Shown: one piece after another, positions 9,529 through 45,838 of the stretch
Position numbering within the stretch: position 1 is the stretch's first letter
How the letters are laid out: each line of letters begins with the position of its first letter
DNA from: a virus
Taxonomy: Duplodnaviria; Caudoviricetes
Direction: 5' to 3' (one strand)
DNA length: 62,927 nucleotides
IMG/VR virus record: IMGVR_UViG_3300035187_002838
Span: 1-62,927 of that record
Position numbers and translations under genes: made by a program
Notes under the pieces: generated by a model
What the model was told of the DNA's origin: nothing
What the model saw: only the letters and a program-made list of their open reading frames with translations
Database searches by the model: none

Positions 9529-10387
9529 TAAATTGGGCCTTGTAAAATCGGGTTAATTGCTGGAACAGCCTGCCGGCCAATCAGCAGCCAAGCTTAGAGA
9601 GAAATCTCTTTGAAGGTTCAACGACTAGGATATACCGCCCGTAAGGGAGATGAAATCCGTAGAATGGAAGTCCATTCGAAACGCCCGACACCGAAAGGTG
9701 AAGATATAGTCTGGTCTGCATGGGAACATGCAGGTTATTTATAGATAGGAACTGGAATGGAATATCAGAATCTTTACGTAAACTTGCTTTTAAAGCATGG
9801 CACTGAAGAGAAACCTAAAGGGTATTCAGAACGACATCATATAATTCCAAAATCAAAAGGTGGAGATGACTCTCCAGAAAATTTGATTTATTTGTCGGCT
9901 AGAGCGCATTTAATTGCACATTGGTTGTTATTTAAAATACATAAGTGTGATATGACCGCTAGAGCTTTCTATGGAATGTGCGATACTTATCGAAGGCCTG
10001 AAAGAGGTCGTATAACAAGCCATACGTACGAAGCTGCAAAGAAAGCTTTTAGTATGAACAATCATATGAAATTGCCTAAATACAGGAAGCTGGCCAAAGA
10101 GTCGGCAACTGAGCAATGGGCTAAAAAATATGATGAGATGAAGTCTTCTAATGCATTTATGTTTTCAGACGAAAAACATCCAATGTATATGAAAGGTAAG
10201 ACAGGCGACCTTCATCCACGCTCTAAGGCTGTTATTACACCACTAGGCAGATTTGGCTCAGTTCGAGAAGCAGCTAAAGCACATATGATTTCACACCCTT
10301 TAATTTCTAGATATTGCAAAAGTGCAATACACCCAGAGTACTACTATGAATAACAGCTACAAATAACGAATGTAGCTTAACATTACA
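9529..10387 (+). mobile_element. group I intron (859 nt) carrying an HNH homing endonuclease
   Basis: P1 AAGGCU/GGCCUU with U-G at 5' splice site; P TTGCTGG, Q AATCAGCAG, R TTCAACGACTA, S AAGATATAGTC; P9 CTGCATG-GGAA-CATGCAG; removal restores motif B RKASKA|QNMVTFYG. Confidence 0.9.
9757..10353 (+). CDS. intron-encoded HNH homing endonuclease
   Basis: HHIIPKSKGG...NLIYLSARAHLIAH HNH core; C-terminal FGSVREAAKAHMIS NUMOD/HTH-like module; sits after P9. Confidence 0.85.
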   Translation: MEYQNLYVNLLLKHGTEEKPKGYSERHHIIPKSKGGDDSPENLIYLSARAHLIAHWLLFKIHKCDMTARAFYGMCDTYRRPERGRITSHTYEAAKKAFSMNNHMKLPKYRKLAKESATEQWAKKYDEMKSSNAFMFSDEKHPMYMKGKTGDLHPRSKAVITPLGRFGSVREAAKAHMISHPLISRYCKSAIHPEYYYE

Positions 10388-20000: not shown

Positions 20001-23000
20001 TTTTTAGAAAAACTTTTCTTAGGTCGCAGACCTAAAAGAACAATTGCAAAGATTAATCAAGAACTTCGGGCTGTTTATGAATCAGTGGCTAAGACAGTTA
20101 CAGCATACGCTTCTAAGTTCATATCACCTTTTACAAATATTTTTAAATTTGGCAAAGGCCAAAAAGATGATGCTTCTGGAGTCGTTGACTTAGTCAACAA
20201 AACGGGTGCTTCAATTTCAAGCAAGGCTACAGAAGCTGCTTCAAAAGCTAGTGAAGCAATAGGCAAAGCAGCTAAAGAGTCATCTAAAACAATCGATAAA
20301 ATTGCAGGTGAAACCGGATTATTAGGCCGTCTTTTTCTAGGAAAATACGGTAAAGCAATTATTATAGGTTCAATACTTTCTGTATTTTCTGCACTTGCTC
20401 TTGCTAATGTGCAAGCGGAAAAAGACCTAAAGTCACCTTTTGATACATTAATTGAAGATGTAAAGAAAATTGACTTTTTGGCACCCTTCAAGGCACTTTC
20501 GACAGAAACACTGTTAAGTATAATTCCTGCTCTTATCGGTGGCTTCCTCTTATTTAAGAATAATATTCTGACTGTGTTTGGCGACATTAAGAGAGCAGCA
20601 ATGAGCACGTTTGCTTCGGTTGCTGCTGCAGCAGGTGCTACTGGTTTAGCTAACATGCTTGGTGGTGTTGCTGGCGGTGGTGGTGGACGTGCGGCACGTA
20701 ACTCACGTACGTTGGCTGTTGGAAGTATTGGAATTGCCGCAGGTGCGGGTGTTGGAGCCGCATTAATTGACAATATAACAACAGGTATTTTAGTAGGCGG
20801 TGCTTTACTTACTTTCATACAAGCTTTGCCTGCAAAGTTAGCCTTAGGTATTATCGGCGGTATTAAAACAGCCTTGTTAGCAACACTTAGTGCTATTTTT
20901 AGCATTCCAACCTTAATTGGCGCTGTTGCATTGACTGCAATAGGTGCGGCAGGTGTTTGGTTATTCGGTCCTAACAAGGAATTCTTTAAAGATTTAGATT
21001 TAGCAATTGACAAGGCAAGGGAGCTTGTCGGTCTGAGGCCTAGAGAAAAACCTTCAGATCGCGGTTTAGCAAAGTCCGATGAAGCATTTCTGAAATCCAG
21101 AAGTATTGAAAGTACATTTTCATTAAAGCAAGTTAACTTACAAAATCTAGACTCAAAAGACATACAGAAGCTTAAGGAAAAGACCGCTGAATATTCTAAA
21201 GCCATTGACAAGGCAAGAGAGGAAGAAGAACAACGTGGCTCTATTACAGACGAAACTCGAAAAGAACTAGAATTATTGGATGCTGGTCTTAAAAACTTTA
21301 CTGGAAAGTTAGCAGTTAAATCTACTAAATTTTCAGGCTCTATGTCTGAATTTATTCAAAACCTAACTAAAGTTGAAGGTGGAAGTAGGTTTGGAGATTT
21401 TGTTTTAAGATCTGAACAATTTAGAAATGATATAATCTTAGGTATTACAAGAGCTGCAGTTCAAGCTAGAAGATTTTTAGATCCTACTAAAGAAGGTAAA
21501 GCAGCTGCTACAGAGCGACTTGCTGAACTAGATTTTGAAGCTAAAACAATTTTTAATGCATTCTACAGACCTTTGTCTGAAACAGAAAAACAGCTCCTTA
21601 ATCTTGCAAAAGCTGCTGAAGCTGTAACAATAACTAATGAAGACTTAGAGCAAAGTCTGCTCAAGGCAAGACAGTTGTATGAGTCTGAAGCTGATAGGGT
21701 TCGGCTGCAACAAGCAACGCCCTTTGGAGGGTTTAAACAATTAACAGCTGCTGATACAGGATCGCTTACAATTCTAAGAGCAGATTACGATTTATTACTC
21801 CGTCAACGAGTTGCATTTGATCGTGTTAGAAAAGCTGCAAATGCTTACCAAGCAGACTTAGCCGCTTTAGGGAATACATTTAAGGATGTTTTAGGCTTAG
21901 ACGTAGATTTTAATGATATTTTTGCTGTAGATCAATCTGACTTAAAACGTATAAAAGATTTACAAGGTGAAGCTAAAAGGCTTGCAGAACAAATAAAGGA
22001 CACCTCTGATGTTGGACGTCAAAATGAAATTACTTTAAGAATTACTGAAATTAGAAGACAAGTTGTACAAATTGTCGAAAATGCTAAAGTCGAAGTTTCG
22101 CCGTTAAGACCCCAAGTTAGAGCTAGAGAACTTGCTGAAAAAGCTGGAATTATTAACAGCGATCAATTTTACGAAGGCTTAGGAGACGAAAGTGCAAGAG
22201 CTTTAATAAGAACATATCAAAATATTATCGAGAAAATAGATAATGCTAAAATTAATCCTTTAAAGCCTTTTGATATTTTCAGTCCAACTGACAAATTAAG
22301 ACCGGTTGAAACTTTAAAAGGTGCTCCTCAACAATCTTTCGGACAATTGCAAGCAGACATTCGAGCTCAACAAGAAGCAGCTGTAAGACAGGCTAAAGAC
22401 GCTGCTAGAGGCACTAAGGCTGAATTGGTGGCTTTACAACAAGATGCTGAAAAATTCGGTATAAATTACGAAAGTTTAATTACAAAGTACGGCATAAAAA
22501 GTTCTATCGGTGTTATTCAAAATCTTTCAAATAAGTTTAGAGAACTGGAAATTGCAAAAACAAACAGGCAGGATAGCAGAGTTGCAATACTAACTAGGCA
22601 AATCGGATTATTAAAAGAAGAGATTAATAAAGTACCTCTAGACTTCCAAGCTGCATTGGGTTATCTAAGCAGCGGCACATTTTCAATTACTGCCGAAGAT
22701 TTGTTCCAAACGCCTGGTATTCTTAAAGACTCGTTAGCCCTTGGCAGAGTATTTAAAAATGTTGAGGATAAGTTTAGACTGATGACTACAAATGTTTCTG
22801 AAATTGAATTTCAAGAAGTTTTTAAAGAGAAGATCGAGGCAAGTCGTAAAGTATTTGATTTATTCCTTAAAACTATTGGGAACACTCCTGCAAAGTTAAC
22901 GCAAGCATTTGAAAGAACTTTTGGTGTAAATCTTTTAGAAACCACATTGCCATCTGAAGATCTTTTAGATTTTGCAGTAAGTGTTGAGAGGATTAAGCTT

Positions 23001-26000
23001 GAACTAGAAGACCTTGCAAAACGAGGTGGTACACGTGAAGAGTTTGCATTCATCACATTGCTTCAACAGCAACTGAATAAAACTATTGAGTTTGCAAAAA
23101 ATAAATTACCTAAGACATTTGAGCAAATTTTTAATAGAGTAAACTCAACCTTAGAATTAAATCTGACTGAAGCTCAACTTATTCGATTACCTAAAGATAC
23201 TCAAAAGTCTTTACAAGACTATGCTAATTATATTCAATCAAGCTTAGAAAAGATTAGGAAATCAACTTTACCGGCGCTTAAAGAAACTCCTGAAGAGTTT
23301 TTTAAAAGTTTAGATGAGATTCTTCGTAAAACTAGTTTTGTAAAATTCTTTACAGATTTTAGCAAGTCGTTTGCTAAAATTGCATTTGAAGGTTTTGTAG
23401 ATCAATTCGGAAGATTGAAAGATCTCGTTTCAGATCTGAAGTTAGAAAAATCCGAATTTGCACAGTTACCTAAGCAGATAAGAGTTCAACTTGCTGAAGA
23501 TGCAACATTAGTAAGAACCTTTGAAAATTTAATTGAAACTCTTCCAGGTATTACAGAAGAACAATTAAGTATTTTAAGCGAATTATCGCCGACAGGTAGT
23601 AATCTAAAAGCTGTTTTTGATGCATTTGCAAGCTCTGTGTTAGCAAGCTTTAATACGTTGCCAGAAAATGTTAGAAGATCTATAGATGCTTTGCTAAAAC
23701 CAGAAACTGATCCTATTGTAAACCAAATTAGATCTTTAGATAATGTTTCGACAAGACTTGACAGTCTTAGAATTGCAATTGACAATCTTACTGCAAAAAT
23801 TTCAGCACCAACAGGTTATGCAGATGGTGGTTATGTAACAGGCCCTGGCACAGGTACTTCAGATTCTATCCCGGCTGTATTGTCTAACGGTGAGTTTGTT
23901 GTTAATGCTGCAGCAACTCGTAGACATAAAAAGTTACTCGAAGAACTGAACAATAATAGCAATGTTTTTAAAAATACCTTTAATACACCTGAGGATATTA
24001 TTCAGAAGAGTCTTGAGATAAATTCTGAAAAGAACCTGTTAAAAGAACTTACATCTGTTCAAGTCGGTTCTGGGAATCTGAGCTTAGCCAAATTCGGAAA
24101 GTCATTTGGTCTTAAGTGGATGTCTAAGTTTGCAAAAGGTGGCGGAATAAAAACGTTTGGATCTCCTTTTGCAGATAGAGTAGAATACGACAAAGAAAAA
24201 CTTAAATTGTTAAATACACCTTATTTTAATTTTGAAAGTTTGTATGAAATTGTTTCACAAACTGAAAAACAACTTTCTGGTGTAGATATTAGTTCTAAAA
24301 AGGATTCAGTAAAGCTTATTGATATACTTACAGGAGACCTTGATAAAAAATTAAAACTTATTGAATCCCTTGAAACTAAAGATTCAAAACTATTTGAAAT
24401 CGGTAAATCAGGTGCATTTGATACTAGTCGTATACTTGATTATAGAATTAACAGGCCTAATGATATTATTGAAACAAACGGTTTAACAGCCTTGACTAAC
24501 GGCCGTGGAGGACTTAAATGGCAGTTAACAGATGATCCTTTTGAGGCTTATTTCAGGCCTGGTTTCGACATGAAGTACCCGAGCCGATACATCTCAGCCC
24601 AAACTTACAGTTTAAAAAATTCAGAAAAAGAATTCTTGCTACCACGAATGGATACTAGCAAAAGTATTCCCGATCTTTTTGCTAGATACGCAATTTCGAA
24701 TCACGAGCTAGGTCATTATTTTAGCCAAAGAAGAACATTGCCAAATGTTGCCGATTTATTTGATCCTCAAAATTTACCTAAATCATTTCAGAACTTAGAT
24801 TATTTTATGGAACTTCGAAATGTACTTAAAGGATATTCGCATGAAAGATACAATTTTGAAGACGTAACTAAAGACTCTTTTTACGAACGATTACTTTTAG
24901 ATGCAGCCTACGTTGATAAAACAGCTGTTACGGAATCGAGTAATTTAAATTTTAGAAAAGGCCTTCAAAACAATCTTTATAGTTTTAAATTATTTGAAGA
25001 GCTGACTGCCTCAAATATAGCCTCGCTTATAGATCCTACAAAAAGTTCTTGGCTAGTTAATCAAAATGCCTTAAGAACTTACCAAGTACAACAACTCAAT
25101 AATTTAGGTTTGTTAAGCCTAATAGAAATGATTTCTAAAAAGGAAAATTATGAAGGATTTTTCGAAATGTTTGAAACACCTAAGATTAATCCTTTTAGCA
25201 CACAACGCCAAGTTAACAGTATGGTTGGTATTCTGTCGAGTAAGACTCAAGATACTTCTACTATTTTTGAAAATTTGAAAAGACTAGATAAAAATAAATT
25301 CGCTTTGCAAACCGATGCTGCAATAGAATATTCTACAGAAGCTTTTAAAGCAATTGAGGAAGAGATCAAAGAACATAGTCGAGTTGGCAACAGCCTTGTA
25401 ACTAAGACTCTGTTTATAGATCCTTACGATCCATATATAGAAAGTTTAAAAGCTCCTGACAAAGCAAGTAAATCAAAAAACACTAAACTAAGCCAATACA
25501 GCCCTCTTCTTGGCCTAGGTGTTTCGACAGGTATTGCTGGATTTGATTTTCTAAATAATGCTAGCGGAAGTGAATTATACTCTGATACTGTGGGTATTGC
25601 ATCTGTTTTAATGAGACTTAGAAATGCTACTGCGACAGGTCTTTTAACTTACGCACCAGAGGTTGCAGATGCTACTTTGAAAAAGAATAATCCAGAGCTT
25701 TGGAAACTCCAACAAGAAACTGACTTGATTAGACAAGCGTCAGAACGAGCTAAAATCAGAAGTTCTGTTGTAGATTCTAAAATGAAAGTACCTAACTCAT
25801 CTCAGAAGAAGCTTTTAGAGCTTGTTCAAGAACCGACTAAGTCTGACAGTATTAGACAAGGCTTTAACAACTTTGGTTTAAATTTTACAGATGATTTAAT
25901 AAAAAGAATGGGTGATCCTGCAAATATATTCTTAAGCAATAGAGCTAAAAAGAGAGCAAACGGTGGTATATTAGAAGGTCCTGGGACAGGCACTTCAGAT

Positions 26001-27362
26001 TCTATACCCGCCTGGCTTTCTAATGGCGAGTTTGTTGTAAACGCAGCAGCCACACGCAAGCACAAAGATTTGCTTGTTAAACTAAATTCTGCAAAAGGGT
26101 TTCAAACAGGTACTGAAACAGATTCTTCAATTGTGTCTAGCAACGTAATGGGGCAACTTGTAACAGTGCTTAATGATCTTAGGAACACTATTTCTAGAAG
26201 AACGACAGAAGCTTTACCACCTGATATAAAGACTTTAGTCAGAGCTAGAAGTTTAGGTGTAGATGTCGATGAGCTAAAACTTAAGTCATTAGAACCTGCA
26301 TTACAGGCTGAGCTTACTAAGCTTATTGAAGCCGCTTATCAAGCTGAAATAAAAGCCCGTAAAGAGAAAACGCCTGAAGCAATAAAAGAGTCTCAAAAGG
26401 CTCTTGACTTTGTAGAATACTTTGTTGAAACAAACTTGCCAAAATTTTCTAATAAGATTAGGGATATTGGATTATCTTTTGCAGATTCTGTTGGTAGTTC
26501 TTTAACAGAGGCTTTAAAAGGATTGTTAAAAGGACAAACAGAAGAAGGTAAAAGCGCATTCCAAACGTTTGCAAAGAGATTCTTAGATAACTTTACAAAC
26601 ACTGTTATAGACACTTTTGTAGCTGGATTAATGGATCCTTTAACAGGCAAGGATGGTTTAATTACAAAGGCTGCAAAAGGCCTTGGAGAGGGTATTTTCG
26701 GATCTGCAAATAAAGCAACTACAGATGCCCTTAACGTAATTAAACCTAAAAATGTTATTTCTCCTGACAAAGTTCCGGTAGAGTCTAGAGATTTATCGGG
26801 AATTAAAGAAGGAGCCCCGGGAATAATTGATAAGATTACGTCAAAACTGAAAGAAGGTGTATCGGGTATAACAGGTTTGTTTAAGGATTTTAAACTTCCA
26901 GATTTTTCAAGCATCTTTAAGGACTTTAAATTACCAGACTTTTCAAGTATTTTTAAAAACTTTGATATTAGCTCGATCTTTAGTATTTTTGGATTTGCAG
27001 AGGGTGGTAAAGTTTCTGGTGCCGGTAGTGGCACCTCGGATTCTATCCCCGCAATGTTATCTAATGGCGAATTCGTCATAAACGCAAAAGCTACGAGAGA
27101 TCATATAGGTCTTTTAACTTCCATCAATTCAGGTAAGCTTAAGAAATTTGCAGAAGGTGGGCTGGTGTCTACGGCAATGTTAGCTGCACCAGCGATAGCT
27201 GATGTAAAAACCGCACAAGTCAATAATCAATCTTCCCAACAAGTTATCAATTTAACTATTACTGGTGATATCAGCCGCCAAACAAAGGCTGAGATTTATC
27301 AAATGCTACCTTCTATTGCTGAAGGTGTAAATTCACACAATCGAGAAAGAGGTTATCGTTAA
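17001..27362 (+). CDS. tape measure protein (3453 aa) with C-terminal repeats and an inserted HExxH domain
   Basis: N-terminal tape-measure motif QLGQGLSSGVLRGEELNSVLEQTPRLA; three GPGTGTSDSIPA.LSNGEFV.NA repeats; HELGH at 24702. Confidence 0.88.
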   Translation: MSGIQIDVNARTSKSEQDLAKINQSLKSIEQSTTSASRALSSTFIGLGTALVTGGALVSLRNISTEFTNLENKIALVTGRTEQLVITQTRLFKIAEETRGSLAGTVTVFSSFGRALRDAGASTENILKATKTVQQSIAISGSSAESAAAALVQLGQGLSSGVLRGEELNSVLEQTPRLAQAIADELKVNLGQLRRLGAEGQLVSDVVFKALLNQSQKINKEFQVLAPTFQQASNALTDSIKIYVNELDKGLGVSTTLGKLTFSLAKSIKGASDNAFELGNNIRIAFNRNKTTALSVIQPIGRSLVELSKQFLQIVPGLNLTRTLKGDFREALRFIDKEFLGGLITRFNQFKFIDLISVESNVEKAIRKLKRLSPTYWAASGFDVKTIQQVLSTENIRLYGAAFTELADALKGNTEGIGNAFTNLARKVDFSFKAISRYLGFRVDTIIAFSRGQLDTFFVTLSEIVRGITGVRIKFFELKSLFINVAQPGIEAFADAVIDSFNALPEGFLNFVDNVAKGSVRLIQIVGQITRELLFTELNINYKEVLDTILNYITSFSDSVANLLSFDSSLDKLQNFGNKVIEIFREIYDKVIGNSWWTDTINNVIQTSETLWDRTSNGLSRFKKNVIGVFKDIFTNKTSFDFEISKKVSFDDVFGGLTADGLVKTFDVVVEKATKVFEKFFETFPNLAKVALTGIAGALVYSLFPPSVLKTIILTSIVSSLATNSTLLAEKFGAAMTGGSFASTLGYAIGRGAGFFISNFIRDIPQILNTIGGFVSSLFRGITEQLPIIGSAISFIFSLASAVGAAGPLGIIGTYLLGKNLNVFSLIAKIEPIKGLLEFFDLKLGKDDDKKKNKSPGVTGAIFSYLFGNFGKERTIASILGVLDLLGTFESLFANSPLTQMAARGGILATILYGEEATTMFKNGFTKFVAKPLGDALRKFSETKGGGIKTIYDIIFGSGDPLALPSTFAERISLVLRPLIDKVTANIVDYASPKLKAGYDFLEKLFLGRRPKRTIAKINQELRAVYESVAKTVTAYASKFISPFTNIFKFGKGQKDDASGVVDLVNKTGASISSKATEAASKASEAIGKAAKESSKTIDKIAGETGLLGRLFLGKYGKAIIIGSILSVFSALALANVQAEKDLKSPFDTLIEDVKKIDFLAPFKALSTETLLSIIPALIGGFLLFKNNILTVFGDIKRAAMSTFASVAAAAGATGLANMLGGVAGGGGGRAARNSRTLAVGSIGIAAGAGVGAALIDNITTGILVGGALLTFIQALPAKLALGIIGGIKTALLATLSAIFSIPTLIGAVALTAIGAAGVWLFGPNKEFFKDLDLAIDKARELVGLRPREKPSDRGLAKSDEAFLKSRSIESTFSLKQVNLQNLDSKDIQKLKEKTAEYSKAIDKAREEEEQRGSITDETRKELELLDAGLKNFTGKLAVKSTKFSGSMSEFIQNLTKVEGGSRFGDFVLRSEQFRNDIILGITRAAVQARRFLDPTKEGKAAATERLAELDFEAKTIFNAFYRPLSETEKQLLNLAKAAEAVTITNEDLEQSLLKARQLYESEADRVRLQQATPFGGFKQLTAADTGSLTILRADYDLLLRQRVAFDRVRKAANAYQADLAALGNTFKDVLGLDVDFNDIFAVDQSDLKRIKDLQGEAKRLAEQIKDTSDVGRQNEITLRITEIRRQVVQIVENAKVEVSPLRPQVRARELAEKAGIINSDQFYEGLGDESARALIRTYQNIIEKIDNAKINPLKPFDIFSPTDKLRPVETLKGAPQQSFGQLQADIRAQQEAAVRQAKDAARGTKAELVALQQDAEKFGINYESLITKYGIKSSIGVIQNLSNKFRELEIAKTNRQDSRVAILTRQIGLLKEEINKVPLDFQAALGYLSSGTFSITAEDLFQTPGILKDSLALGRVFKNVEDKFRLMTTNVSEIEFQEVFKEKIEASRKVFDLFLKTIGNTPAKLTQAFERTFGVNLLETTLPSEDLLDFAVSVERIKLELEDLAKRGGTREEFAFITLLQQQLNKTIEFAKNKLPKTFEQIFNRVNSTLELNLTEAQLIRLPKDTQKSLQDYANYIQSSLEKIRKSTLPALKETPEEFFKSLDEILRKTSFVKFFTDFSKSFAKIAFEGFVDQFGRLKDLVSDLKLEKSEFAQLPKQIRVQLAEDATLVRTFENLIETLPGITEEQLSILSELSPTGSNLKAVFDAFASSVLASFNTLPENVRRSIDALLKPETDPIVNQIRSLDNVSTRLDSLRIAIDNLTAKISAPTGYADGGYVTGPGTGTSDSIPAVLSNGEFVVNAAATRRHKKLLEELNNNSNVFKNTFNTPEDIIQKSLEINSEKNLLKELTSVQVGSGNLSLAKFGKSFGLKWMSKFAKGGGIKTFGSPFADRVEYDKEKLKLLNTPYFNFESLYEIVSQTEKQLSGVDISSKKDSVKLIDILTGDLDKKLKLIESLETKDSKLFEIGKSGAFDTSRILDYRINRPNDIIETNGLTALTNGRGGLKWQLTDDPFEAYFRPGFDMKYPSRYISAQTYSLKNSEKEFLLPRMDTSKSIPDLFARYAISNHELGHYFSQRRTLPNVADLFDPQNLPKSFQNLDYFMELRNVLKGYSHERYNFEDVTKDSFYERLLLDAAYVDKTAVTESSNLNFRKGLQNNLYSFKLFEELTASNIASLIDPTKSSWLVNQNALRTYQVQQLNNLGLLSLIEMISKKENYEGFFEMFETPKINPFSTQRQVNSMVGILSSKTQDTSTIFENLKRLDKNKFALQTDAAIEYSTEAFKAIEEEIKEHSRVGNSLVTKTLFIDPYDPYIESLKAPDKASKSKNTKLSQYSPLLGLGVSTGIAGFDFLNNASGSELYSDTVGIASVLMRLRNATATGLLTYAPEVADATLKKNNPELWKLQQETDLIRQASERAKIRSSVVDSKMKVPNSSQKKLLELVQEPTKSDSIRQGFNNFGLNFTDDLIKRMGDPANIFLSNRAKKRANGGILEGPGTGTSDSIPAWLSNGEFVVNAAATRKHKDLLVKLNSAKGFQTGTETDSSIVSSNVMGQLVTVLNDLRNTISRRTTEALPPDIKTLVRARSLGVDVDELKLKSLEPALQAELTKLIEAAYQAEIKARKEKTPEAIKESQKALDFVEYFVETNLPKFSNKIRDIGLSFADSVGSSLTEALKGLLKGQTEEGKSAFQTFAKRFLDNFTNTVIDTFVAGLMDPLTGKDGLITKAAKGLGEGIFGSANKATTDALNVIKPKNVISPDKVPVESRDLSGIKEGAPGIIDKITSKLKEGVSGITGLFKDFKLPDFSSIFKDFKLPDFSSIFKNFDISSIFSIFGFAEGGKVSGAGSGTSDSIPAMLSNGEFVINAKATRDHIGLLTSINSGKLKKFAEGGLVSTAMLAAPAIADVKTAQVNNQSSQQVINLTITGDISRQTKAEIYQMLPSIAEGVNSHNRERGYR
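26880..26990 (+). repeat. in-frame tandem repeat FKDFKLPDFSSI (two full copies plus degenerate)
   Basis: Visible in the tape measure translation. Confidence 0.8.
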
Positions 27363-35568: not shown

Positions 35569-36096
35569 ATGATACCATTAATGATTCAGCCGCTCATTGC
35601 AGGAGGTCTTAATCTCCTTGCTAATGCAGCTATGGCAAAAGGTAAAGAATGGATTCAAGAAAAGACAGGTATTGATATTGATAAAGGTTCTTTGTCACCT
35701 CAAGAACTTCATGCTCTACAACAGTATGAAATGGATCACGAGGAAGAGCTCTTAAGAATCAAACAAGAAGACAATAGAATTGCTGCAGACCTTGAAAAAG
35801 CATATTTAGCAGATGTGCAAAGTGCTAGAAACATGCAGCAGACTGCTATCGAATCTGACGATAAATTTGTCAGACGGTTTGTGTATTACTTTGCAATTTT
35901 CTGGGCAATTTGTACGGCGTCTTACATTGGATTTATTACCTTTGGTGTAGTGCCTGAAGATAATGTAAGATTTGCAGACACAATTCTTGGCTTCTTGCTC
36001 GGCACAATTTTGTCTGGAATTTTTAACTTTTTCTATGGTTCGTCTAAAGGCAGTCAAGATAAAACTCAAGCAATGCTTAAGGAGATCTCTAAATGA
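35569..36096 (+). CDS. putative holin
   Basis: DVQSARNMQ, two hydrophobic segments, FFYGSSKGS; adjacent to endolysin. Confidence 0.7.
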   Translation: MIPLMIQPLIAGGLNLLANAAMAKGKEWIQEKTGIDIDKGSLSPQELHALQQYEMDHEEELLRIKQEDNRIAADLEKAYLADVQSARNMQQTAIESDDKFVRRFVYYFAIFWAICTASYIGFITFGVVPEDNVRFADTILGFLLGTILSGIFNFFYGSSKGSQDKTQAMLKEISK

Positions 36097-36422
36097 TGAC
36101 ATTAGGTCAACATCAAGAAGCCTTTGCGAGAGATCTTGCAAAACTATTGTCAAAAGCTTTTGAGCTAGGTTATGATGCTCGCTTAGGTGAGCTACAAAGA
36201 ACAGTTGATCAGCAGACTATTTATGTTAAGACAGGCAAGTCGCAAACAATGAATAGTATGCATTTAAAGAAATGTGCAATTGACATTTTCTTTACAAGAT
36301 CAGGGCAGCTTGTATACCCTGAAGAGCTTGGGAAATATTGGGAGAGCTTAAATTCTCTTAACCAAGCTGGTATGTTTTGGCGAAAATTTAAAGATGGTCC
36401 ACATTACGAAAGAAGGTGCTAA
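36093..36422 (+). CDS. endolysin, peptidase M15 family
   Basis: R..DQQ, SMH....AID and DGPHYE zinc-ligand motifs. Confidence 0.82.
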   Translation: MMTLGQHQEAFARDLAKLLSKAFELGYDARLGELQRTVDQQTIYVKTGKSQTMNSMHLKKCAIDIFFTRSGQLVYPEELGKYWESLNSLNQAGMFWRKFKDGPHYERRC

Positions 36423-36533
36423 ATGGCTACGAAACCAATGATCCCAATTAAGAAAGATAATTTTAAAACTTGCCCTGGATGCCCTAGTCCAGGTAAGTGC
36501 AAAGCTGCAGGCAAGTGTCTTAAAAGCAAGTAA
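36423..36533 (+). CDS. 36-aa Cys/Lys-rich peptide (not in ORF track)
   Basis: MATKPMIPIKKDNFKTCPGCPSPGKCKAAGKCLKSK; GAAGG RBS; followed by terminator. Confidence 0.55.
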   Translation: MATKPMIPIKKDNFKTCPGCPSPGKCKAAGKCLKSK

Positions 36534-36537
36534 CATC

Positions 36538-36566
36538 AACCCCACTGAAAGGTGGGGTTTTATTTT
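36538..36566 (+). terminator. intrinsic terminator after lysis genes
   Basis: AACCCCACT-GAAA-GGTGGGGTT then T-rich tail. Confidence 0.75.
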
Positions 36567-36575
36567 GGAGTTAAG

Positions 36576-36827
36576 ATGCCATACGATCCTAGTAGAAAAA
36601 GAGATTACAAAAAAGAATATAAGCAAGACCTGAAAACAGGCAAGTCCGGTCCAGATAGTGATCAACATGAACGTCAGAAGGCTAGACGAATGTATGATTC
36701 TATGGGCGTTGATAGGGATGGTAAACATATAGACCACAAGAAGCCAATTAGGAGTGGCGGTAAGTCTGTTAAAGGTAATTTAAGATTACGTGACCCTAGC
36801 AAGAACAGCGCTGATAACGGCAAATAG
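36576..36827 (+). CDS. small HNH endonuclease-like protein
   Basis: HIDHKKPIRSGG...NLR......N; GGAG RBS before ATG 36576. Confidence 0.7.
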   Translation: MPYDPSRKRDYKKEYKQDLKTGKSGPDSDQHERQKARRMYDSMGVDRDGKHIDHKKPIRSGGKSVKGNLRLRDPSKNSADNGK

Positions 36828-36841
36828 TTCAACGGGTGTCA

Positions 36842-36874
36842 TGCGGAAAAGTCGGTATCTTATATGATAAGCAA
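36842..36874 (+). promoter_or_regulatory. putative early promoter, class A, copy 1
   Basis: TGCGGAAAAGTCGGTATCTTATATGATAAGCAA; near-identical copies at 40898 and 41515. Confidence 0.65.
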
Positions 36875-36939
36875 AAGCCTATCAACAAATTCATATGCGA
36901 TGCGCATATGGACTTTTGTAATCTACGCCTAAACGGGCA

Positions 36940-37215
36940 ATGGAGAAGTCAACAATGCTTTCTCACACAGAAGCTTTGTCAAAGCTGAAGACTGTTGAGC
37001 CGTCTGATCTCGTACAAATCAGTACGCGTATTGGAAAATATCTTGGACGGCCGATCTATCCGGCATCGTCGATAGTAATTGAAGAAGTAAGTGACGATGG
37101 CGGCCTTGCCGCTATGGTCAAGATGACTTACAAGGGGGTGCAGGTTTACAATTCCATGGCATATCATCCCACCCTGGCCCAGTGCATTGTCTTCGTTATG
37201 GCAAAGCATTGGTAA
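36940..37215 (+). CDS. early hypothetical protein, paralog of 37858..38130
   Basis: Shares LVQISTRIGKYLG, EVSDDGG, PTLAQCI, MAKHW with the paralog. Confidence 0.75.
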   Translation: MEKSTMLSHTEALSKLKTVEPSDLVQISTRIGKYLGRPIYPASSIVIEEVSDDGGLAAMVKMTYKGVQVYNSMAYHPTLAQCIVFVMAKHW

Positions 37216-37279
37216 GTGAAACTGAAGAGGCTTAAATAATAGCCGAAACCTAGGCCCTTCGGGGCCGATGGTCTTTCAC
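37216..37279 (+). ncRNA. type I hammerhead ribozyme 1 (cleavage after C37273)
   Basis: Stem I GTGAAA/TTTCAC; CTGAAGA core; stem II GGCT/AGCC; GAAA; stem III capped by cUUCGg; GUC triplet. Confidence 0.88.
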
Positions 37280-37299
37280 AACTTTGAAGGAATCTTCAA

Positions 37300-37605
37300 A
37301 TGAAACGTCAAGGTGCTGTATTTAACAGGCGCGAATTAAAGCGCGCAAGAAATTTAGTAAGGTGGGTTGCAAATGGATGCAACTGGAAAAATCCAGTCAA
37401 CGCAACTTCAATAGCAGCAAAATCGTCTTTAAATAACTATGCAGTTTGCATTGAAGTACTTGGATTTGCAAAGAATCTTGCAAATCAAGGAAACAGTCTT
37501 ATTACGCAATCTATAGCAGGAGCTGCTGTTGATGCCGTTCTTAGAGGAGACTTAGGATGGGCTGATGATTTGATGGACTTTTGGTCTGAACGCGGACTTT
37601 TATAA
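37300..37605 (+). CDS. early hypothetical protein
   Basis: GAAGGA RBS just 3' of ribozyme 1. Confidence 0.65.
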   Translation: MKRQGAVFNRRELKRARNLVRWVANGCNWKNPVNATSIAAKSSLNNYAVCIEVLGFAKNLANQGNSLITQSIAGAAVDAVLRGDLGWADDLMDFWSERGLL

Positions 37606-37641
37606 CCAATGAGATTTTTTTTTTTTCAAAGGAGTTTTAAA

Positions 37642-37776
37642 ATGAACGCTTATCTGCGTTACATGAAAGCCGAAGCTCGCGCTTATGAGAGCAACAATGT
37701 TTCCAGAATGTTGAAGTTGGCAAGTCTTAAAGCGCGTGCGTACAGTATGTACGGTTTAACTTGTCTTTACTGGTAA
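37642..37776 (+). CDS. 44-aa early protein (not in ORF track)
   Basis: T12-CAAAGGAG RBS; MNAYLRYMKAEARAYES...CLYW; stop abuts ribozyme 2. Confidence 0.65.
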   Translation: MNAYLRYMKAEARAYESNNVSRMLKLASLKARAYSMYGLTCLYW

Positions 37777-37837
37777 GTGAAACTGAAGAGACCTTTATGG
37801 TCGAAACCTAGGCTCTTCGGGGCCGATGGTCTTTCAC
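37777..37837 (+). ncRNA. type I hammerhead ribozyme 2 (cleavage after C37831)
   Basis: Same core; stem II covaries to GACC/GGTC. Confidence 0.88.
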
Positions 37838-37857
37838 AAACTTTGAAGGAGTCTTAA

Positions 37858-38130
37858 ATGGAAACTTTTCTCTCTCATGCAGATGCTTTAACAAAGCTGA
37901 AAACTGCGGATCCTTTCTGTCTTGTACAGATTAGTACTCGTATTGGAAAGTATCTAGGAAAGCCTCTTTATCGGACATCATCAATCGTGGTGCACGAGGT
38001 GAGTGACGATGGTGGCATTGCTGCTCAGGTTAAGATGACTTATAAAAGTAAGTCTATCGTTGATCCTGACGGAACGTATACTCCAACCCTCGCACAATGC
38101 ATTGCATTTATCATGGCAAAGCATTGGTAA
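37858..38130 (+). CDS. early hypothetical protein, paralog of 36940..37215
   Basis: GAAGGAG RBS; shared motifs with the paralog. Confidence 0.75.
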   Translation: METFLSHADALTKLKTADPFCLVQISTRIGKYLGKPLYRTSSIVVHEVSDDGGIAAQVKMTYKSKSIVDPDGTYTPTLAQCIAFIMAKHW

Positions 38131-38191
38131 GTGAAACTGAAGAGGCTTCATTAGCCGAAACCTAGGCCCTTCGGGGCCGATGGTCTTTCAC
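38131..38191 (+). ncRNA. type I hammerhead ribozyme 3 (cleavage after C38185)
   Basis: Same core and stems; loop II TCATT. Confidence 0.88.
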
Positions 38192-38206
38192 AACGGAGTT
38201 TTTTGT

Positions 38207-38608
38207 ATGAACGCAACCGCACGGTTCTCTTCCACCTCTCAAAAGGAAGACGGTCTGACTGTTACTGAAAAAACAGTCCTCACGATATGCCCTCCTGGAT
38301 GCTTCAAAGAAGAAGCGGAAGACGATGGTGTGTCTTACAAAAGCATCCTCAAGCTTTCAAATGGAAGCCACTTTCTCGTCTGGGACGAAGTAAAGAAGGA
38401 GGATGGTGTGTGGTTCTACGGATTCCACGAGTTCACTTGGGACTCGGATATCCAATACAACACCCACGTAGGTGGCATCTGCTTCTCAGCAGTTAAGCCA
38501 GGATACATCGAGTGGAATTCCCGTAACTGGGACGTGACTGATAAAGACGTCACGATGGCTGAAGAAAATAAATTCCGCCAAGTCATCCACCGCGTACTAG
38601 GCGGCTGA
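38207..38608 (+). CDS. early hypothetical protein
   Basis: GGAG RBS then ATG 38207; the track start 38180 lies inside the ribozyme. Confidence 0.65.
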   Translation: MNATARFSSTSQKEDGLTVTEKTVLTICPPGCFKEEAEDDGVSYKSILKLSNGSHFLVWDEVKKEDGVWFYGFHEFTWDSDIQYNTHVGGICFSAVKPGYIEWNSRNWDVTDKDVTMAEENKFRQVIHRVLGG

Positions 38609-38613
38609 TACTT

Positions 38614-38640
38614 AGACCTGAGCAGGTCTTTAAAAGGCTC
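38614..38640 (+). repeat. repeated H-type pseudoknot motif, copy 1
   Basis: AGACC-TGAGCA-GGTCT-TTAAAAG-GCTC; loop GAGC pairs with 3' GCTC. Confidence 0.6.
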
Positions 38641-38695
38641 TGACTGAGCGAGCTGTAGCGTAATTTTTTTTTTTTTTTTTTCAAAGGAGTGTTAA

Positions 38696-38899
38696 ATGAA
38701 AAAGTTTATGAACTGGTTTAAAAATCTGTTTCAACCGCGGTCTGCGGCAGTTCTCGCCTTGATTGAGCTTGAAGAGTCGAAGCGGCAATTTCTTGTGTAC
38801 AAGGCTTCAGAAGAACAAGGCAAACACCTGGCCAAGTACTACAGCGAAAAGATTAGCAGGCTTGAAGCCTATCTCAAAGGGGACCAAAATGAAAAGTGA
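38696..38899 (+). CDS. early hypothetical protein
   Basis: T18-CAAAGGAG RBS; 67 aa. Confidence 0.65.
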   Translation: MKKFMNWFKNLFQPRSAAVLALIELEESKRQFLVYKASEEQGKHLAKYYSEKISRLEAYLKGDQNEK

Positions 38900-38962
38900 A
38901 GATATTGGACTGATTGTCGTATCTGCAATTGCAATTCTTTTAATGATTACAGGAGTGATTTA

Positions 38963-39106
38963 ATGGTCACATTTGGGAAGTTCAAGTGGCCAGTGAGCAT
39001 CGTGAGTTACGCGCAGGAAAGCCACATGCGCAATCCCGCGTATTACCACATGTCTTTGGAGGAAATCCTCCATAAGTTTTACAGCACTTATAAGAGAGCT
39101 GTTTAA
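38963..39106 (+). CDS. 47-aa early protein (not in ORF track)
   Basis: AGGAG RBS; MVTFGKFKWPVSIVSYAQ... Confidence 0.5.
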   Translation: MVTFGKFKWPVSIVSYAQESHMRNPAYYHMSLEEILHKFYSTYKRAV

Positions 39107-39163
39107 CCCATTTAGAAGCCATTAGAGATAGTGGCTTCAATAATGTGTTAATTTTGACACAGA
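39105..39163 (+). repeat. repeated long stem-loop (RNase III site-like), copy 1
   Basis: CATTTAGAAGCCATTA-GAGA-TAGTGGCTTC-AAT-AATG; copies at 39584 and 40562. Confidence 0.6.
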
Positions 39164-39181
39164 CTTTGAAAGGACTTTGAA

Positions 39182-39580
39182 ATGAAACATTTTCCATTGA
39201 GCTTGCCGCAAGAGATCGAGCTTATTGCGCAATTGCACCTTACTGGATCGCGGTACTTTGGAACTGCAAGACCTGTTTCTGACTGGGACTTTATTGTAGA
39301 TTCTGCGTCCAACGAAGTGATTTTAGCGTTATTTCGAAGGCACAAAGCCTACCTTATTGGCTCATATGCCATCGAGACTGGAGGCCAAGTTTGGCGTTGG
39401 GATTATGAGGCTCAACAAACCCATATCGACTTCCAGATCGTTCCAAATATAGCTTGGAAGCTCCGAGCGCAAGCTTGGATCAAAGCTATGTTGGATGAAG
39501 GGTTTTGCTTTCCAGACTCAAAAGTAAAAAGAAATAAGATTTGGGAGGCTGCTTTTAAGGCGTCAGAAGACCACGGTTAA
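39182..39580 (+). CDS. minimal nucleotidyltransferase (Pol-beta superfamily)
   Basis: hTGSRYFG.....SDWDF motif plus third Asp in HIDFQI. Confidence 0.7.
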   Translation: MKHFPLSLPQEIELIAQLHLTGSRYFGTARPVSDWDFIVDSASNEVILALFRRHKAYLIGSYAIETGGQVWRWDYEAQQTHIDFQIVPNIAWKLRAQAWIKAMLDEGFCFPDSKVKRNKIWEAAFKASEDHG

Positions 39581-39583
39581 CTT

Positions 39584-39642
39584 AACTCATTTAGAAGCCA
39601 TTAGAAATAGTGGCTTCACTAATGTGTTAATGGTAACACAGA
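39584..39642 (+). repeat. repeated long stem-loop, copy 2
   Basis: Near-identical to 39105 copy, followed by the same CTTTGAAAGGAC RBS. Confidence 0.6.
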
Positions 39643-39658
39643 CTTTGAAAGGACTGAA

Positions 39659-39934
39659 ATGTTCTTGCATGTTTTCTATAACGGTAATGTTGATGTGAAA
39701 GAATTTAGTCTTCCACATGAGGCTTGGAATGCGCTGTATAAGCGTATGGAAGAGCTGTCGACAGAAGAAGTTTATGCGAAACTTTCTAATCAACCTGCAG
39801 AGGCTAATCCTTTTTTCTGGAGAAAAATTACGAAAGATCGTACTTCGCATCTTTCTATGAATCAAAAATATTTGCGAGGAATTAAAATTCTTCAGCAAGG
39901 AATTGATTCTTGGTATAACTCGAAAGGATTTTGA
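39659..39934 (+). CDS. early hypothetical protein
   Basis: GAAAGGA RBS; 91 aa. Confidence 0.6.
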   Translation: MFLHVFYNGNVDVKEFSLPHEAWNALYKRMEELSTEEVYAKLSNQPAEANPFFWRKITKDRTSHLSMNQKYLRGIKILQQGIDSWYNSKGF

Positions 39935-39935
39935 A

Positions 39936-40151
39936 ATGGGTACTATTGACAGAGCAACTGCTGAAAAGATTCGTAGCGGGGCGCTATCCCAGGTATCGAT
40001 CCAATATATTATAGAATATAATAACATGTTTAATGGAGGTCTCGCCTATGGGTGTATCGGCTGGAGAGAAAACAAACGGAGATATCACGAATCTCCAGCC
40101 TGTATCAATCCGAGGCTTTGGTGGTCTAACCCTAAAGCTGAACCTTTTTGA
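39936..40151 (+). CDS. early hypothetical protein
   Basis: GAAAGGA RBS before ATG 39936. Confidence 0.6.
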   Translation: MGTIDRATAEKIRSGALSQVSIQYIIEYNNMFNGGLAYGCIGWRENKRRYHESPACINPRLWWSNPKAEPF

Positions 40152-40897: not shown

Positions 40898-40930
40898 TGC
40901 GGAAAAAGCGGTATCTTATATGATAAGCAA
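40898..40930 (+). promoter_or_regulatory. putative early promoter, class A, copy 2
   Basis: TGCGGAAAAAGCGGTATCTTATATGATAAGCAA. Confidence 0.65.
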
Positions 40931-41514: not shown

Positions 41515-41540
41515 TGCGGAAAAAGTGGTATCTTATATGA
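41515..41540 (+). promoter_or_regulatory. putative early promoter, class A, copy 3
   Basis: TGCGGAAAAAGTGGTATCTTATATGA. Confidence 0.65.
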
Positions 41541-43333: not shown

Positions 43334-43585
43334 GTGGTAAGCAAGAAAAGGGCAATTAAAAAAAGGAGAAAATGTGTCGCCGAAATCTAATTATAAAGTT
43401 ATGCATTTTCTTTTGATTGTAATTGTCTTGTTCTTATTTTCCCGACTGTCTTTTGATGCCCTGATTTTAGGCGCCCTTGTGATTTATTTATTGCAGCGAA
43501 CAGGTAAGAAAGATGATTAAGTTTTTGATTGGACTTTATCTAATTTATCTTATCCCTAAAATAATATCTAAAATAAAGGAACTTG

Positions 43586-45838
43586 ATGAAAAAGAAAATT
43601 CTTGATTCTTTAAACTCAAGAATAACAACTGAAATATCGGGACATAACCCGCTTAAATATTTGCTTAAGATTAAAACAGAAGATTATATTGATACATTAA
43701 TATCTATTGTATATCTATACACTAGACCGAAGAAGGGTCATAATAAAAATTCTATTTATCTTACAGAAGTTATTTCAGCTATCGGACACGGTATTCGGAA
43801 TAAGTTCAAACTAAAACGTGACTCAGCATTGGCGGCTAAAACTGGCGCCTTCATGTTATATACTTTTGAACATCTCGGATATATTCAAGTTGTTCTCGGA
43901 CAAGGCTCAAAAGGGCATAACACTTATCTTGTGCAAGTGCTCAATGATGATGAAATTTGCAATTTGTGGAATTCACTAGATCCTTCTCAAATTGAAAAGT
44001 TACCTTCAGAGACTCCCTACGAACCGTGGACTTCTGCAAAGCATTCAACGGGTGTCTGGCTTGTTAAAACAGGCAATAAAACAGTCTTAGACAGTCTTAC
44101 TCCAGAAACACATCCTATTGTCTTTAATTGCGTCAACAAAGCACAACAGATGGGCTGGAAAATAAACAATTGCGTTTACGATCTTCATTTGTGGGCCTTA
44201 CGAAATAAAACAGATGCATTCTCTGAAATCTGGGAATTGTCTAATGCGGAAGCAAAGGCAACTAAACTAAGAGAAGCAAAAGCTATAGGTGACATCTCAC
44301 GAAGATTCTTAAATAAAGTTTTTTATCATCTTTATTACTATGACTTTAGAGGTCGTAAATATACCGCTACTGCATATTTGCATGAGCAAGGCTCTGACCT
44401 TGCAAGAGGTCTACTATTGAGAGCAGACTCAAAACCAATTGGAAAAGAAGGCTTCTTTTGGCTAATGGTATCAATTGCTTCAAATTGGGCGGGTGATGCT
44501 GGCAGAGAAGATGGTGCAAAGACTGACAAAATACCGCTTCAAGAACGATATCTTTGGGCTCTAGACAACGAAGAAATTCTATTGTCATATGCCGAAAACC
44601 CTAAAGTAAATCAAGGTTGGATGAAAGCTGATAATCCTTGGCAATTCATTGCAGCGTGCAACGAACTAATGCGATTTAGAATCTGGCAAATGAATGTGTA
44701 TGAAAACCACAAAGATGTTGTAGCTGAATATGACTACCCATCATCGCTTGAAGTATATATTGACGGGTCAAACAATGGTAGTCAGCATCTTGCAGCATTG
44801 ACTAAAGATGAAATAATTGCACCGCATGTAAATCTGGTGCCATTAAACTTGCCTGGAGATCTCTACAAATATGTCGGTGACCATGTCTGGAAACATCTTG
44901 AAGAAGAGCTTTCTTTAATGACAAATGAAGAAATTCAGGACTGTGAACGAGTCATTGATAATCTAATTCAGCTTAAAAAGCAAATAAATGCTGCTGAACC
45001 TAAAAGTGATTTTAGAAAACAACTCATAGAACAAATCAAAGAATTTAAGTCTGAAAATGATCAGCTTATTGGGATTGCTGCACCTGTATTTTGGTCTAGA
45101 ATTAAAGATGCAAAACACAAGAGAAAGATTGTGAAAAGAAATACGATGACTATCCCGTATGGCGGAACAGCCTATGGCTTAGGTCAGCAAATCATTGATG
45201 ATGCTAGAAAGCATAATATTGAACTTTTGCTTTATATGGAACATCGATGGGGTGCATATCTCGGAAGAGAAGTGTTTAATGACTGCAAGCGTTCTTTAGA
45301 AAAGCCTATGCAATTGCTTAAGATCTTTGAAGAGGCTGGTCGAAAAGCTGAGCAAGACGGCAAGTTTTTATCCTGGACTGTGCCTGTTACAAAGTTTCCT
45401 GTAGTACAAAACTATACAGAAGGCGTTGTTAAAAAGATTTACGTACAATATGGTCCACCTCAAGGTCTTAGAAATAGCACAGGTTATTTTGATAATACAC
45501 TGCAATTAGCAATATGCTTCATTGAGGATGTAAAACCTTCTAAAGGAAAACAGTCTCAAGGTGCAAGTCCGAATATCATTCACAGTCTTGATGCTGCGCA
45601 TCTGTCTATGATTGTAGCTTCTTCTGACTTTCCTGTAACGACTATTCACGATTCTTTCGGATGTCTTCTGGCAGATATGCCTAAGTTGTTTGCAGTAACT
45701 AGACAAACATTTGTTGAACTTTATAAACAAGATCCTTTAACATCGATTATGAAAGATATAGGAGGTAATGCAAATGAAGTAGAACTAGGAAATCTTGATT
45801 TAAACTTGGTAATTGAATCCGAATATTGTTTTTGCTAA
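43586..45838 (+). CDS. T7-type single-subunit DNA-dependent RNA polymerase (stand-alone)
   Basis: DFRGRKY; motif A IDGSNNGSQH; motif B RKIVKRNTMTIPYG; PNIIHSLDA; motif C TIHDSF. Confidence 0.93.
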   Translation: MKKKILDSLNSRITTEISGHNPLKYLLKIKTEDYIDTLISIVYLYTRPKKGHNKNSIYLTEVISAIGHGIRNKFKLKRDSALAAKTGAFMLYTFEHLGYIQVVLGQGSKGHNTYLVQVLNDDEICNLWNSLDPSQIEKLPSETPYEPWTSAKHSTGVWLVKTGNKTVLDSLTPETHPIVFNCVNKAQQMGWKINNCVYDLHLWALRNKTDAFSEIWELSNAEAKATKLREAKAIGDISRRFLNKVFYHLYYYDFRGRKYTATAYLHEQGSDLARGLLLRADSKPIGKEGFFWLMVSIASNWAGDAGREDGAKTDKIPLQERYLWALDNEEILLSYAENPKVNQGWMKADNPWQFIAACNELMRFRIWQMNVYENHKDVVAEYDYPSSLEVYIDGSNNGSQHLAALTKDEIIAPHVNLVPLNLPGDLYKYVGDHVWKHLEEELSLMTNEEIQDCERVIDNLIQLKKQINAAEPKSDFRKQLIEQIKEFKSENDQLIGIAAPVFWSRIKDAKHKRKIVKRNTMTIPYGGTAYGLGQQIIDDARKHNIELLLYMEHRWGAYLGREVFNDCKRSLEKPMQLLKIFEEAGRKAEQDGKFLSWTVPVTKFPVVQNYTEGVVKKIYVQYGPPQGLRNSTGYFDNTLQLAICFIEDVKPSKGKQSQGASPNIIHSLDAAHLSMIVASSDFPVTTIHDSFGCLLADMPKLFAVTRQTFVELYKQDPLTSIMKDIGGNANEVELGNLDLNLVIESEYCFC

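Follow-up and report, generated by a model that had tools for sequence, protein, structure and literature searches.

Three tandem elements at gene boundaries

The window analysed here, a stretch of 62,927 nucleotides (nt), is the whole of the IMG/VR virus record IMGVR_UViG_3300035187_002838 (Duplodnaviria; Caudoviricetes), which is estimated to be 93% complete. Among small orphan genes that lie between a terminator (36538-36559) and the T7-type RNA polymerase gene, direct reading of the sequence reveals three copies of an element of 61-64 nt (repeat family D2), all on the + strand and together spanning 37216-38191. The assignment of these elements as hammerhead ribozyme motifs of type I is well supported. 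They are listed with their predicted cuts and with their scores against R1, a covariance model built from a 62-sequence alignment that is described below.

37216..37279, + strand: hammerhead 1 (type I), predicted cut 37273/37274; model R1, 68.1 bits
37777..37837, + strand: hammerhead 2 (type I), predicted cut 37831/37832; model R1, 66.5 bits
38131..38191, + strand: hammerhead 3 (type I), predicted cut 38185/38186; model R1, 67.7 bits

The same order of parts was read in all three copies: GUGAAA, CUGAAGA, stem II, GAAA, CCUA-hairpin-GAUGG, UC↓ and UUUCAC, with the arrow at the predicted cut. By the standard numbering convention for the hammerhead core, in which N7 is the sole free core position, the strand C3-U4-G5-A6-N7-G8-A9 reads CUGAAGA in each copy, with A at N7. 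The G10.1-C11.1 pair closes stem II and is followed by G12-A13-A14 (GAG...CGAAA), and an A15.1-U16.1 pair together with C17 forms the cleavage site (GAAAC...GGUC↓U), again in three of three copies. In each copy, stem II has 4 base pairs (bp) and a loop of 5-8 nt, and in stem III the internal loop UA/GAU separates CC from a 5-bp helix that has a UUCG cap. Copies 1 and 3 form stem II from GGCU/AGCC and copy 2 forms it from GACC/GGUC, a difference that amounts to two double compensatory changes, and a single C-to-U change in stem III of copy 2 retains a G-U pair. Stem I is open and loops cap stems II and III, which is the topology of type I; this was seen in the sequence, in the descriptor matches given below, and in the minimum-energy folds of bare copies 1 and 3, both of which take the hammerhead shape. 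The first-pass annotation of this DNA had proposed three type I hammerheads with intact cores and compensatory changes in stem II. The core, the topology, the covariation and the family-model scores (66-68 bits) on which the type I assignment rests confirm that proposal.

We then asked how often such elements are found by chance. The pattern CTGANGAGN{4,30}CGAAAN{6,36}GTC matches the window three times, against a mean of 0.03 expected, and none of 100 shuffles reached three matches. A stem-checking descriptor of our own construction, which demands all three helices, returned these three elements and nothing else over the 62.9-kilobase (kb) window; over 749 kb of fetched loci it gave 78 distinct matches on the forward sequences and 0 on the reversed sequences. 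With model R1 the three copies scored 66.5-68.1 bits, and the next match in the window, with the filters off, scored 10.8 bits (E 0.66). No fourth copy was found in the window by this full-model search.

The elements separate five small genes, numbered here by position.

36940..37215, + strand: gene 1, 91 amino acids (aa), orphan; paralogue of gene 4 (67% protein identity)
37300..37605, + strand: gene 2, 101 aa, without family
37633..37776, + strand: gene 3, 47 aa (55 aa if begun at 37609); preceded by a T12 run and AAAGGAG
37858..38130, + strand: gene 4, 90 aa; paralogue of gene 1
38207..38608, + strand: gene 5, 133 aa from an ATG behind GGAG, without family

TAA stop codons at 37213-37215, 37774-37776 and 38128-38130 each stand 1 nt ahead of stem I, and the start codons that follow the cuts (37300, 37858 and 38207) are each preceded by a Shine-Dalgarno sequence. 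The leaders from predicted cut to start codon measure 26, 26 and 21 nt for copies 1, 2 and 3, respectively, and the predicted internal pieces, of 558 and 354 nt, are equal to the spacing of the repeats. The cut coordinates, the piece lengths of 558 and 354 nt, the placement after stop codons and the leaders of 21-26 nt that had been assigned to this locus from its letters were all correct on direct reading. The accompanying description of the pieces as gene-sized holds in part: the boundaries do fall at genes, but the 558-nt piece carries two open reading frames (ORFs; 37300-37605 and 37633-37776) and not one gene.

Related elements, covariation and arrays

Relatives were fetched with a pattern that fixed the core, the G10.1-C11.1 pair, the first stem III pairs and the internal loop, and 59 stretches were obtained in IMG/VR contigs. 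After removal of duplicates and of a single match that lay at the edge of a locus, the alignment comprised 62 sequences, the three of the window included. Standard pairs occupy 92.8% of its cells, against 64.0% in column shuffles, and 0 of 500 shuffles reached the observed value; when the partner columns were slid by 1-3 positions, the paired cells amounted to 27-42%. Double changes were found in 14 of the 18 pairs (6/6 in stem I, 3/4 in stem II and 5/5 in distal stem III), and the four invariant pairs are all fixed by the fetching pattern. Four close relatives (loci L005, L010, L086 and L106) carry one copy each with stem I as in the window; their N7 is C, A or U, and their stem II and distal stem III differ yet pair. 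Only one locus, L069, holds a hammerhead among 17 loci fetched by polymerase similarity, several of which stop short upstream. Across the family, 44 of 61 elements have the CUGA box within 12 nt of the end of an open frame that is on the same strand and has 40 codons or more, a placement that agrees with a putative role at gene boundaries.

Hammerheads 1 and 3 are identical except in loop II, while the paralogous genes that flank them share ~74% identity in DNA and 67% in protein. In the alignment of the paralogues, the stretch of 100% identity starts 18 nt ahead of the stop codon, takes in the whole ribozyme except loop II and ends exactly at CACAAC, 9 nt beyond the cut. Purifying selection thus appears to have held the RNA element constant while the adjoining genes drifted, unless gene conversion is responsible.

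Arrays of type I elements were detected with the descriptor in 26 other de-duplicated contigs, in numbers of 2-7 and at a spacing of 160-1600 nt. Seven copies each are present in L012, L016, L094 and L101, five in L097, and four each in L103, L107 and L114. Since arrays of this size occur in other contigs, the trio is ordinary for the phage type I array class. Within arrays, stem I and the few bases that follow it are near-uniform and stems II and III diverge, as is apparent from the mean identities given below for 26 de-duplicated arrays with 138 within-array pairs (the arrays are phylogenetically related, hence these statistics overstate independence).

Stem I (12 nt): 0.786 within arrays, 0.384 between arrays
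Stem II (6 free nt): 0.571 within arrays, 0.447 between arrays
3′ flank (6 nt): 0.517 within arrays, 0.305 between arrays
5′ flank (6 nt): 0.365 within arrays

The uniformity of stem I amid divergence of stems II and III within arrays is possibly a new pattern. As a consequence of it, the two ends of an excised piece can pair with each other, the 5′ end with the ribozyme at the 3′ end. At least 4 bp can be formed in this way in 37 of 59 pieces, as against 14.9% of cross-array pairs, and in the window the 5′ end of each of the two pieces matches stem I of its own 3′ ribozyme at six of six pairs. One might suppose that the common leader, 5′-OH-UUUCACAAC, belongs to a dedicated system by which early messenger RNAs (mRNAs) would acquire paired ends or be covalently closed into circular, translatable molecules, or that it is a leader shared for the sake of a phage or host factor, although we regard this as unlikely.

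A more specific form of end closure had been raised in the first-pass annotation, namely that the internal 558- and 354-nt RNAs could circularise. Through the reverse reaction or a host RtcB-type ligase they would be closed as circles, or held as end-paired pseudo-circles, and would constitute exonuclease-resistant early messages. The end chemistry is ligatable, as established for hammerhead cleavage; stem I (GUGAAA/UUUCAC) is common to the three copies, so that the ends of both pieces are complementary (6/6 pairs in 2/2 pieces); and the array data given above, both the compatibility of at least 4 bp and the higher identity of stem I than of stem II, provide the strongest argument for such RNAs or for a common leader. 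However, neither the minimum-energy nor the centroid fold of either excised piece contains end pairing through stem I, and a 6-bp A/U-rich helix is weak over 350-550 nt. The arrays of L012 and L016 are mostly incompatible with end pairing, and the relatedness of the arrays applies to this comparison as well. In the account that Perreault et al. (2011) give of prophage clusters no circular or spliced products were detected (PMC3088659), and a search of the open-access literature, at the level of titles and the first part of abstracts, returned no report of phage hammerhead circles. With folds that keep the ends apart and with no circles detected in the 2011 study, circularisation of the two pieces is not supported, and we consider it improbable.

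The homogeneity of stem I and of the 3′ flank within arrays could also be read at the level of DNA. The 60-nt repeats, with their identical stem I and flank, would then serve as homology linkers for the duplication, loss and swapping of cassettes between co-infecting phages, with cleavage being secondary. The trio stems in part from duplication of a gene plus its ribozyme, and the genes flanked by clusters vary according to Perreault et al. (PMC3088659). Population-variant contigs were available from DNA runs X3, X4 and X5. One lake-water contig joins 37197 to 38113 and loses the 915 nt between the paralogues, and contigs in two runs replace 36874-38614, i.e., the whole ribozyme cassette, by 538 other letters. 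The joint of the 915-nt loss lies, however, in a 36-nt stretch that is common to the paralogue ends and the ribozyme start, so that ordinary homologous recombination suffices to explain it, and it is promoter-like repeats, rather than ribozymes, that lie at the limits of the 1739-nt replacement. A linker role would, moreover, leave the conservation of the catalytic core and the compensatory stem changes unexplained. We judge it most improbable that the repeats are maintained for this purpose.

Two further observations concern the architecture of the family. The 2×3 internal loop of stem III (5′-UA / 5′-RAU, flanked by CC/GG; for example at 37248-37271) is present in 57 of the 78 descriptor matches in the fetched loci, a frequency that is biased upward by the use of that very motif in fetching the sequences. 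Within arrays it is found in a minority of copies (1/7 in L012, 2/7 in L016 and 2/7 in L101). We presume that it resembles a UA-handle or a tetraloop-receptor-like motif. In a GC-rich subgroup (L011, L018, L019, L020, L042, L049, L053 and L057), loop II contains, as judged by eye, GCGG(A), and the 3′ product of the same loci bears (U)CCGC 4-8 nt past stem I. These segments could form a pseudoknot between loop II and the tail, as in PMC3088659, or a 5′-terminal hairpin of the 3′ product.

Predicted processing of a polycistronic RNA

We consider it probable, from the sequence and its relatives, that the three elements are active type I hammerheads carried on a polycistronic RNA and that they process this RNA into gene pieces by self-cleavage. 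Cutting at gene boundaries fits the anatomy of the locus: the elements are on the same strand as the genes, they begin just after stop codons, a promoter-like motif lies upstream of them, and they are themselves upstream of the polymerase gene. The earlier proposal of an early polycistronic RNA that is cut at gene boundaries is consistent with these four features, but its label of first early transcript came from gene order only. The features that might delimit the transcription unit are as follows.

36853..36867, + strand: promoter-like motif CGGTATCTTATATGA; exact copies at 36853 and 40909, and a copy with one mismatch at 41526
36893..36911, + strand: hairpin CATATGCG-ATG-CGCATATG, perfect 8 bp with a 3-nt loop, in the gene 1 leader just downstream of the promoter-like motif; also listed as terminator-like in the scan
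38614..38681, + strand: hairpin GACCTG-AG-CAGGTC, with ~20 T further on; possible end of the unit

The strongly conserved promoter-like motif lies 360 nt upstream of the hammerheads of the window, and its core, TATCTTATATG, was found 175-556 nt upstream of a hammerhead in all five relatives checked (L005, L010, L086, L106 and L069). We infer that CGGTATCTTATATGA is likely a promoter and marks the start region of the ribozyme-bearing transcription unit. Its copies in the window (36853-36867, 40909-40923 and 41526-41540) are all upstream of the polymerase gene.

In the mechanism that we propose, the phage is a T7-like one from lake water, and its polycistronic RNA would most likely originate in the early region, at the promoter-like site near 36853. 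Each ribozyme would fold as the RNA is made and would cut itself after its GUC. Four RNAs would be released. One would carry gene 1 and end in hammerhead 1, two internal RNAs would measure 558 nt (genes 2 and 3) and 354 nt (gene 4), and the fourth would be the downstream RNA from gene 5 onwards. The upstream products would end in the compact ribozyme fold with a 2′,3′-cyclic phosphate, and the downstream products would begin with 5′-OH-UUUCACAAC, 21-26 nt ahead of the start codon. The advantage is likely to be that neighbouring early genes would become mutually independent in message stability and in translation, as for T7 early RNA after the cuts made by ribonuclease III (RNase III). We infer that cleavage occurs in vivo and that it would affect RNA decay or translation. 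The suggestions that self-cleavage replaces RNase III and that 5′-OH ends evade decay may be regarded as reasonable analogies.

Several observations weigh against this mechanism. Stem I is made of only 6 A/U-rich pairs. The minimum-energy fold of the bare copy 2 element is an alternative shape, not the hammerhead, and when the natural flanks are included the minimum-energy folds of all three copies favour competing pairings. Natural hammerheads normally require a tertiary contact between stem I and loop II for fast cleavage at cellular Mg2+ concentrations, and it may count against activity that neither such a contact nor a pseudoknot was identified by eye in the three window copies. Complementarity between loop II (UAAAUAAU, UUUAU and UCAUU) and the flanks was likewise not seen by eye. 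In some distant members of the family, loop II is complementary to the 3′ tail. The start and the timing of the transcript, and with them the terms early and first transcript, may reasonably be supposed from the T7-like gene order and the repeated motif only. Finally, the hammerhead families of Rfam (clan CL00010: RF00163, RF00008, RF02275, RF02276 and RF02277) gave no match when the window was scanned at gathering scores. In E-value mode copy 1 alone was matched, by Hammerhead_HH9 (RF02275), with 20.1 bits and E 0.049, where the gathering score is 52. An Infernal search with the Rfam models had been proposed as a check of the hammerheads, and it placed no copy at the gathering score, the best value being 20.1 against 52 bits. 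Membership of the hammerhead class is argued from covariation and the defining features rather than from Rfam.

Some of these observations would be accounted for if the elements were structural repeats that do not cleave, acting as 3′ stabiliser hairpins, attenuators, weak terminators or protein-binding sites between genes. The missing tertiary contact, the competing folds with natural flanks and the sub-threshold Rfam scores are all compatible with such repeats. The three stem III hairpins were listed as terminator-like in the scan, and Perreault et al. (2011) point out that hammerheads in clusters may in some cases lack function (PMC3088659). A hairpin function would not, however, preserve single-stranded catalytic bases, and N7 is the sole core base that varies in the close relatives (stem II and distal stem III were free in the fetching). 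The identity of hammerheads 1 and 3, loop II aside, covers the whole three-way junction and not just the hairpin. Furthermore, the sequence that follows the hairpin, GAUGGUCUUU, has just three consecutive U residues, which is poor for termination, and stem III was rejected as a terminator on account of this poor U tract. Non-cleaving repeats are therefore very unlikely in our view, and self-cleaving hammerheads remain the preferred reading.

In 16 related loci, type I elements of the kind present in the window never reach the Rfam threshold. Type II hammerheads that Rfam does recognise (RF02276, 37.6-38.9 bits) were found in L015, L023 and L029, at 350-600 nt from type I elements and on the same strand, so that these loci are mixed-type clusters. 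Two weak matches to PhotoRC-I over stems II and III (E-value mode, 17.5-18 against 45 bits) were treated as chance. Standard Rfam annotation would overlook the elements described here and their entire sub-family.

The five flanked genes have no family in Pfam or PHROGs, the sole listed match being to DUF3961 (E 0.039, below the cut-off), and the search for homologues of gene 1 found only gene 1 itself and its paralogue, gene 4. T runs (12 at 37615-37626 and ~20 at 38664-38681) directly precede the ribosome-binding sites, TCAAAGGAG, of two small genes, and similar runs are present in the relatives L005 and L010 (the 12-T run is repeat family D5 in the window). All ORFs of at least 370 aa in the window are on the + strand. 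Structural and lysis genes lie before 36.5 kb, and the window also encodes a T7-type RNA polymerase (43583-45838), a family A DNA polymerase, a primase-helicase and a ribonucleotide reductase. The nearest cultured relative of the RNA polymerase is that of roseophage DSS3_VP1 (34%). A blastn search with 36000-40000 against 50,697 phage records gave no match, and the DNA runs that contain the stretch are labelled lake water.

Elsewhere in the window, a 1083-aa ORF with a Mu F-like domain is broken at its end by a group I intron core (9467-9733; RF00028, 89.3 bits). The core is followed by a free-standing HNH ORF (9757-10353) and then by an ORF (10394-11818) with a weak match to the T7-type RNA polymerase domain. 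The region 6280-11818 may encode a single large virion protein, divided by an intron and its homing endonuclease. A 3453-aa ORF (17001-27362), unusually large among phages that have a T7-type polymerase, carries an N-terminal tape-measure domain (PF20155, E 1.5e-53); that it might be a virion RNA polymerase was ruled out by the tape-measure domain.

Comparison with known systems

In T7, the early RNA is cut by host RNase III at intergenic sites within double-stranded hairpins of ~20 bp. T7 cuts and those predicted here both fall in intergenic spacers of an early polycistronic RNA, in a phage with a T7-type polymerase, and both would leave a structured upstream 3′ end and a short downstream leader. 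The predicted cutter is here the RNA itself, whereas in T7 it is a host protein. The elements contain no long double-stranded hairpin, their longest continuous helix being 6 bp, and the analogy is functional only. The ends would also differ, being 5′-OH and 2′,3′-cyclic phosphate here but 5′-phosphate and 3′-OH in T7.

The closest precedent is found in prophages. Multiple hammerheads often flank single genes or short blocks there, which was taken to imply that a long phage RNA is converted into gene-length mRNAs (PMC3088659). According to the same report, three tandem arrangements were cleaved during in vitro transcription, and the trio of Agrobacterium tumefaciens, located around ardA, was also cleaved in Escherichia coli. 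Its treatment of prophage clusters considers circular or spliced products and states that none were detected. With three copies, 558 and 354 nt apart, each between + strand ORFs of a viral record, the window contains a cluster of the Perreault type. Both cases consist of co-oriented hammerheads between phage genes or blocks, the proposed processing role is the same, and the idea of circular products was raised there too (PMC3088659). The present cluster differs from those described there in that it belongs to a metagenomic, apparently lytic, T7-like phage and lies upstream of the RNA polymerase gene, and in that its members are all of type I, share one stem I, contain the 2×3 UA/GAU loop in stem III and fall below the Rfam threshold. 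The interpretation of such a trio as RNA processing sites was thus already published for prophages in 2011 (PMC3088659), and the basic finding is a further example of it. A 2019 review repeats the processing idea and describes the purpose of bacterial and phage hammerheads as still undefined (PMC6765202).

The haloviruses HF1 and HF2 carry a hammerhead variant in an early polycistronic transcript, upstream of an early helicase gene, where activity in vivo is suggested by a 5′ end that was mapped no more than 3 nt from the cleavage site (PMC3088659). Both there and, by the present reading, here, a lytic tailed virus has a hammerhead in an early polycistronic RNA; the HF1/HF2 ribozyme, as described there, is solitary, has a variant core and belongs to an archaeal virus, while here three copies with a consensus core are in tandem. 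Retrozymes and satellite or viroid-like RNAs (PMC7761336, PMC6765202) also have repeated hammerheads with an interchangeable stem I that bracket a ligatable RNA of unit length. As presented in these sources, they are non-coding mobile or replicating RNAs for which circles are documented, whereas the pieces considered here are phage messages with ribosome-binding sites, whose predicted folds do not close the ends. No paper that deals with hammerheads in the early region of a T7-like phage came up in searches of the open-access literature.

We conclude that: i) the three elements are very probably, as judged from their sequence, self-cleaving processing sites of an early phage operon, a phenomenon known since 2011, and ii) among the fetched contigs, viral and metagenomic, there are arrays of up to seven type I hammerheads. 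The window offers a clean study case, with three consensus-core ribozymes at exact gene boundaries in the apparent early operon of a T7-like phage; the analogous task in T7 falls to a host enzyme. If a system of paired or closed ends, or of a shared leader, were to prove true, it would represent a mode of bacterial mRNA maturation for which the open-access literature searched holds no description. The uniformity of stem I within arrays provides a testable lead on why phages use ribozymes, and not host nucleases.

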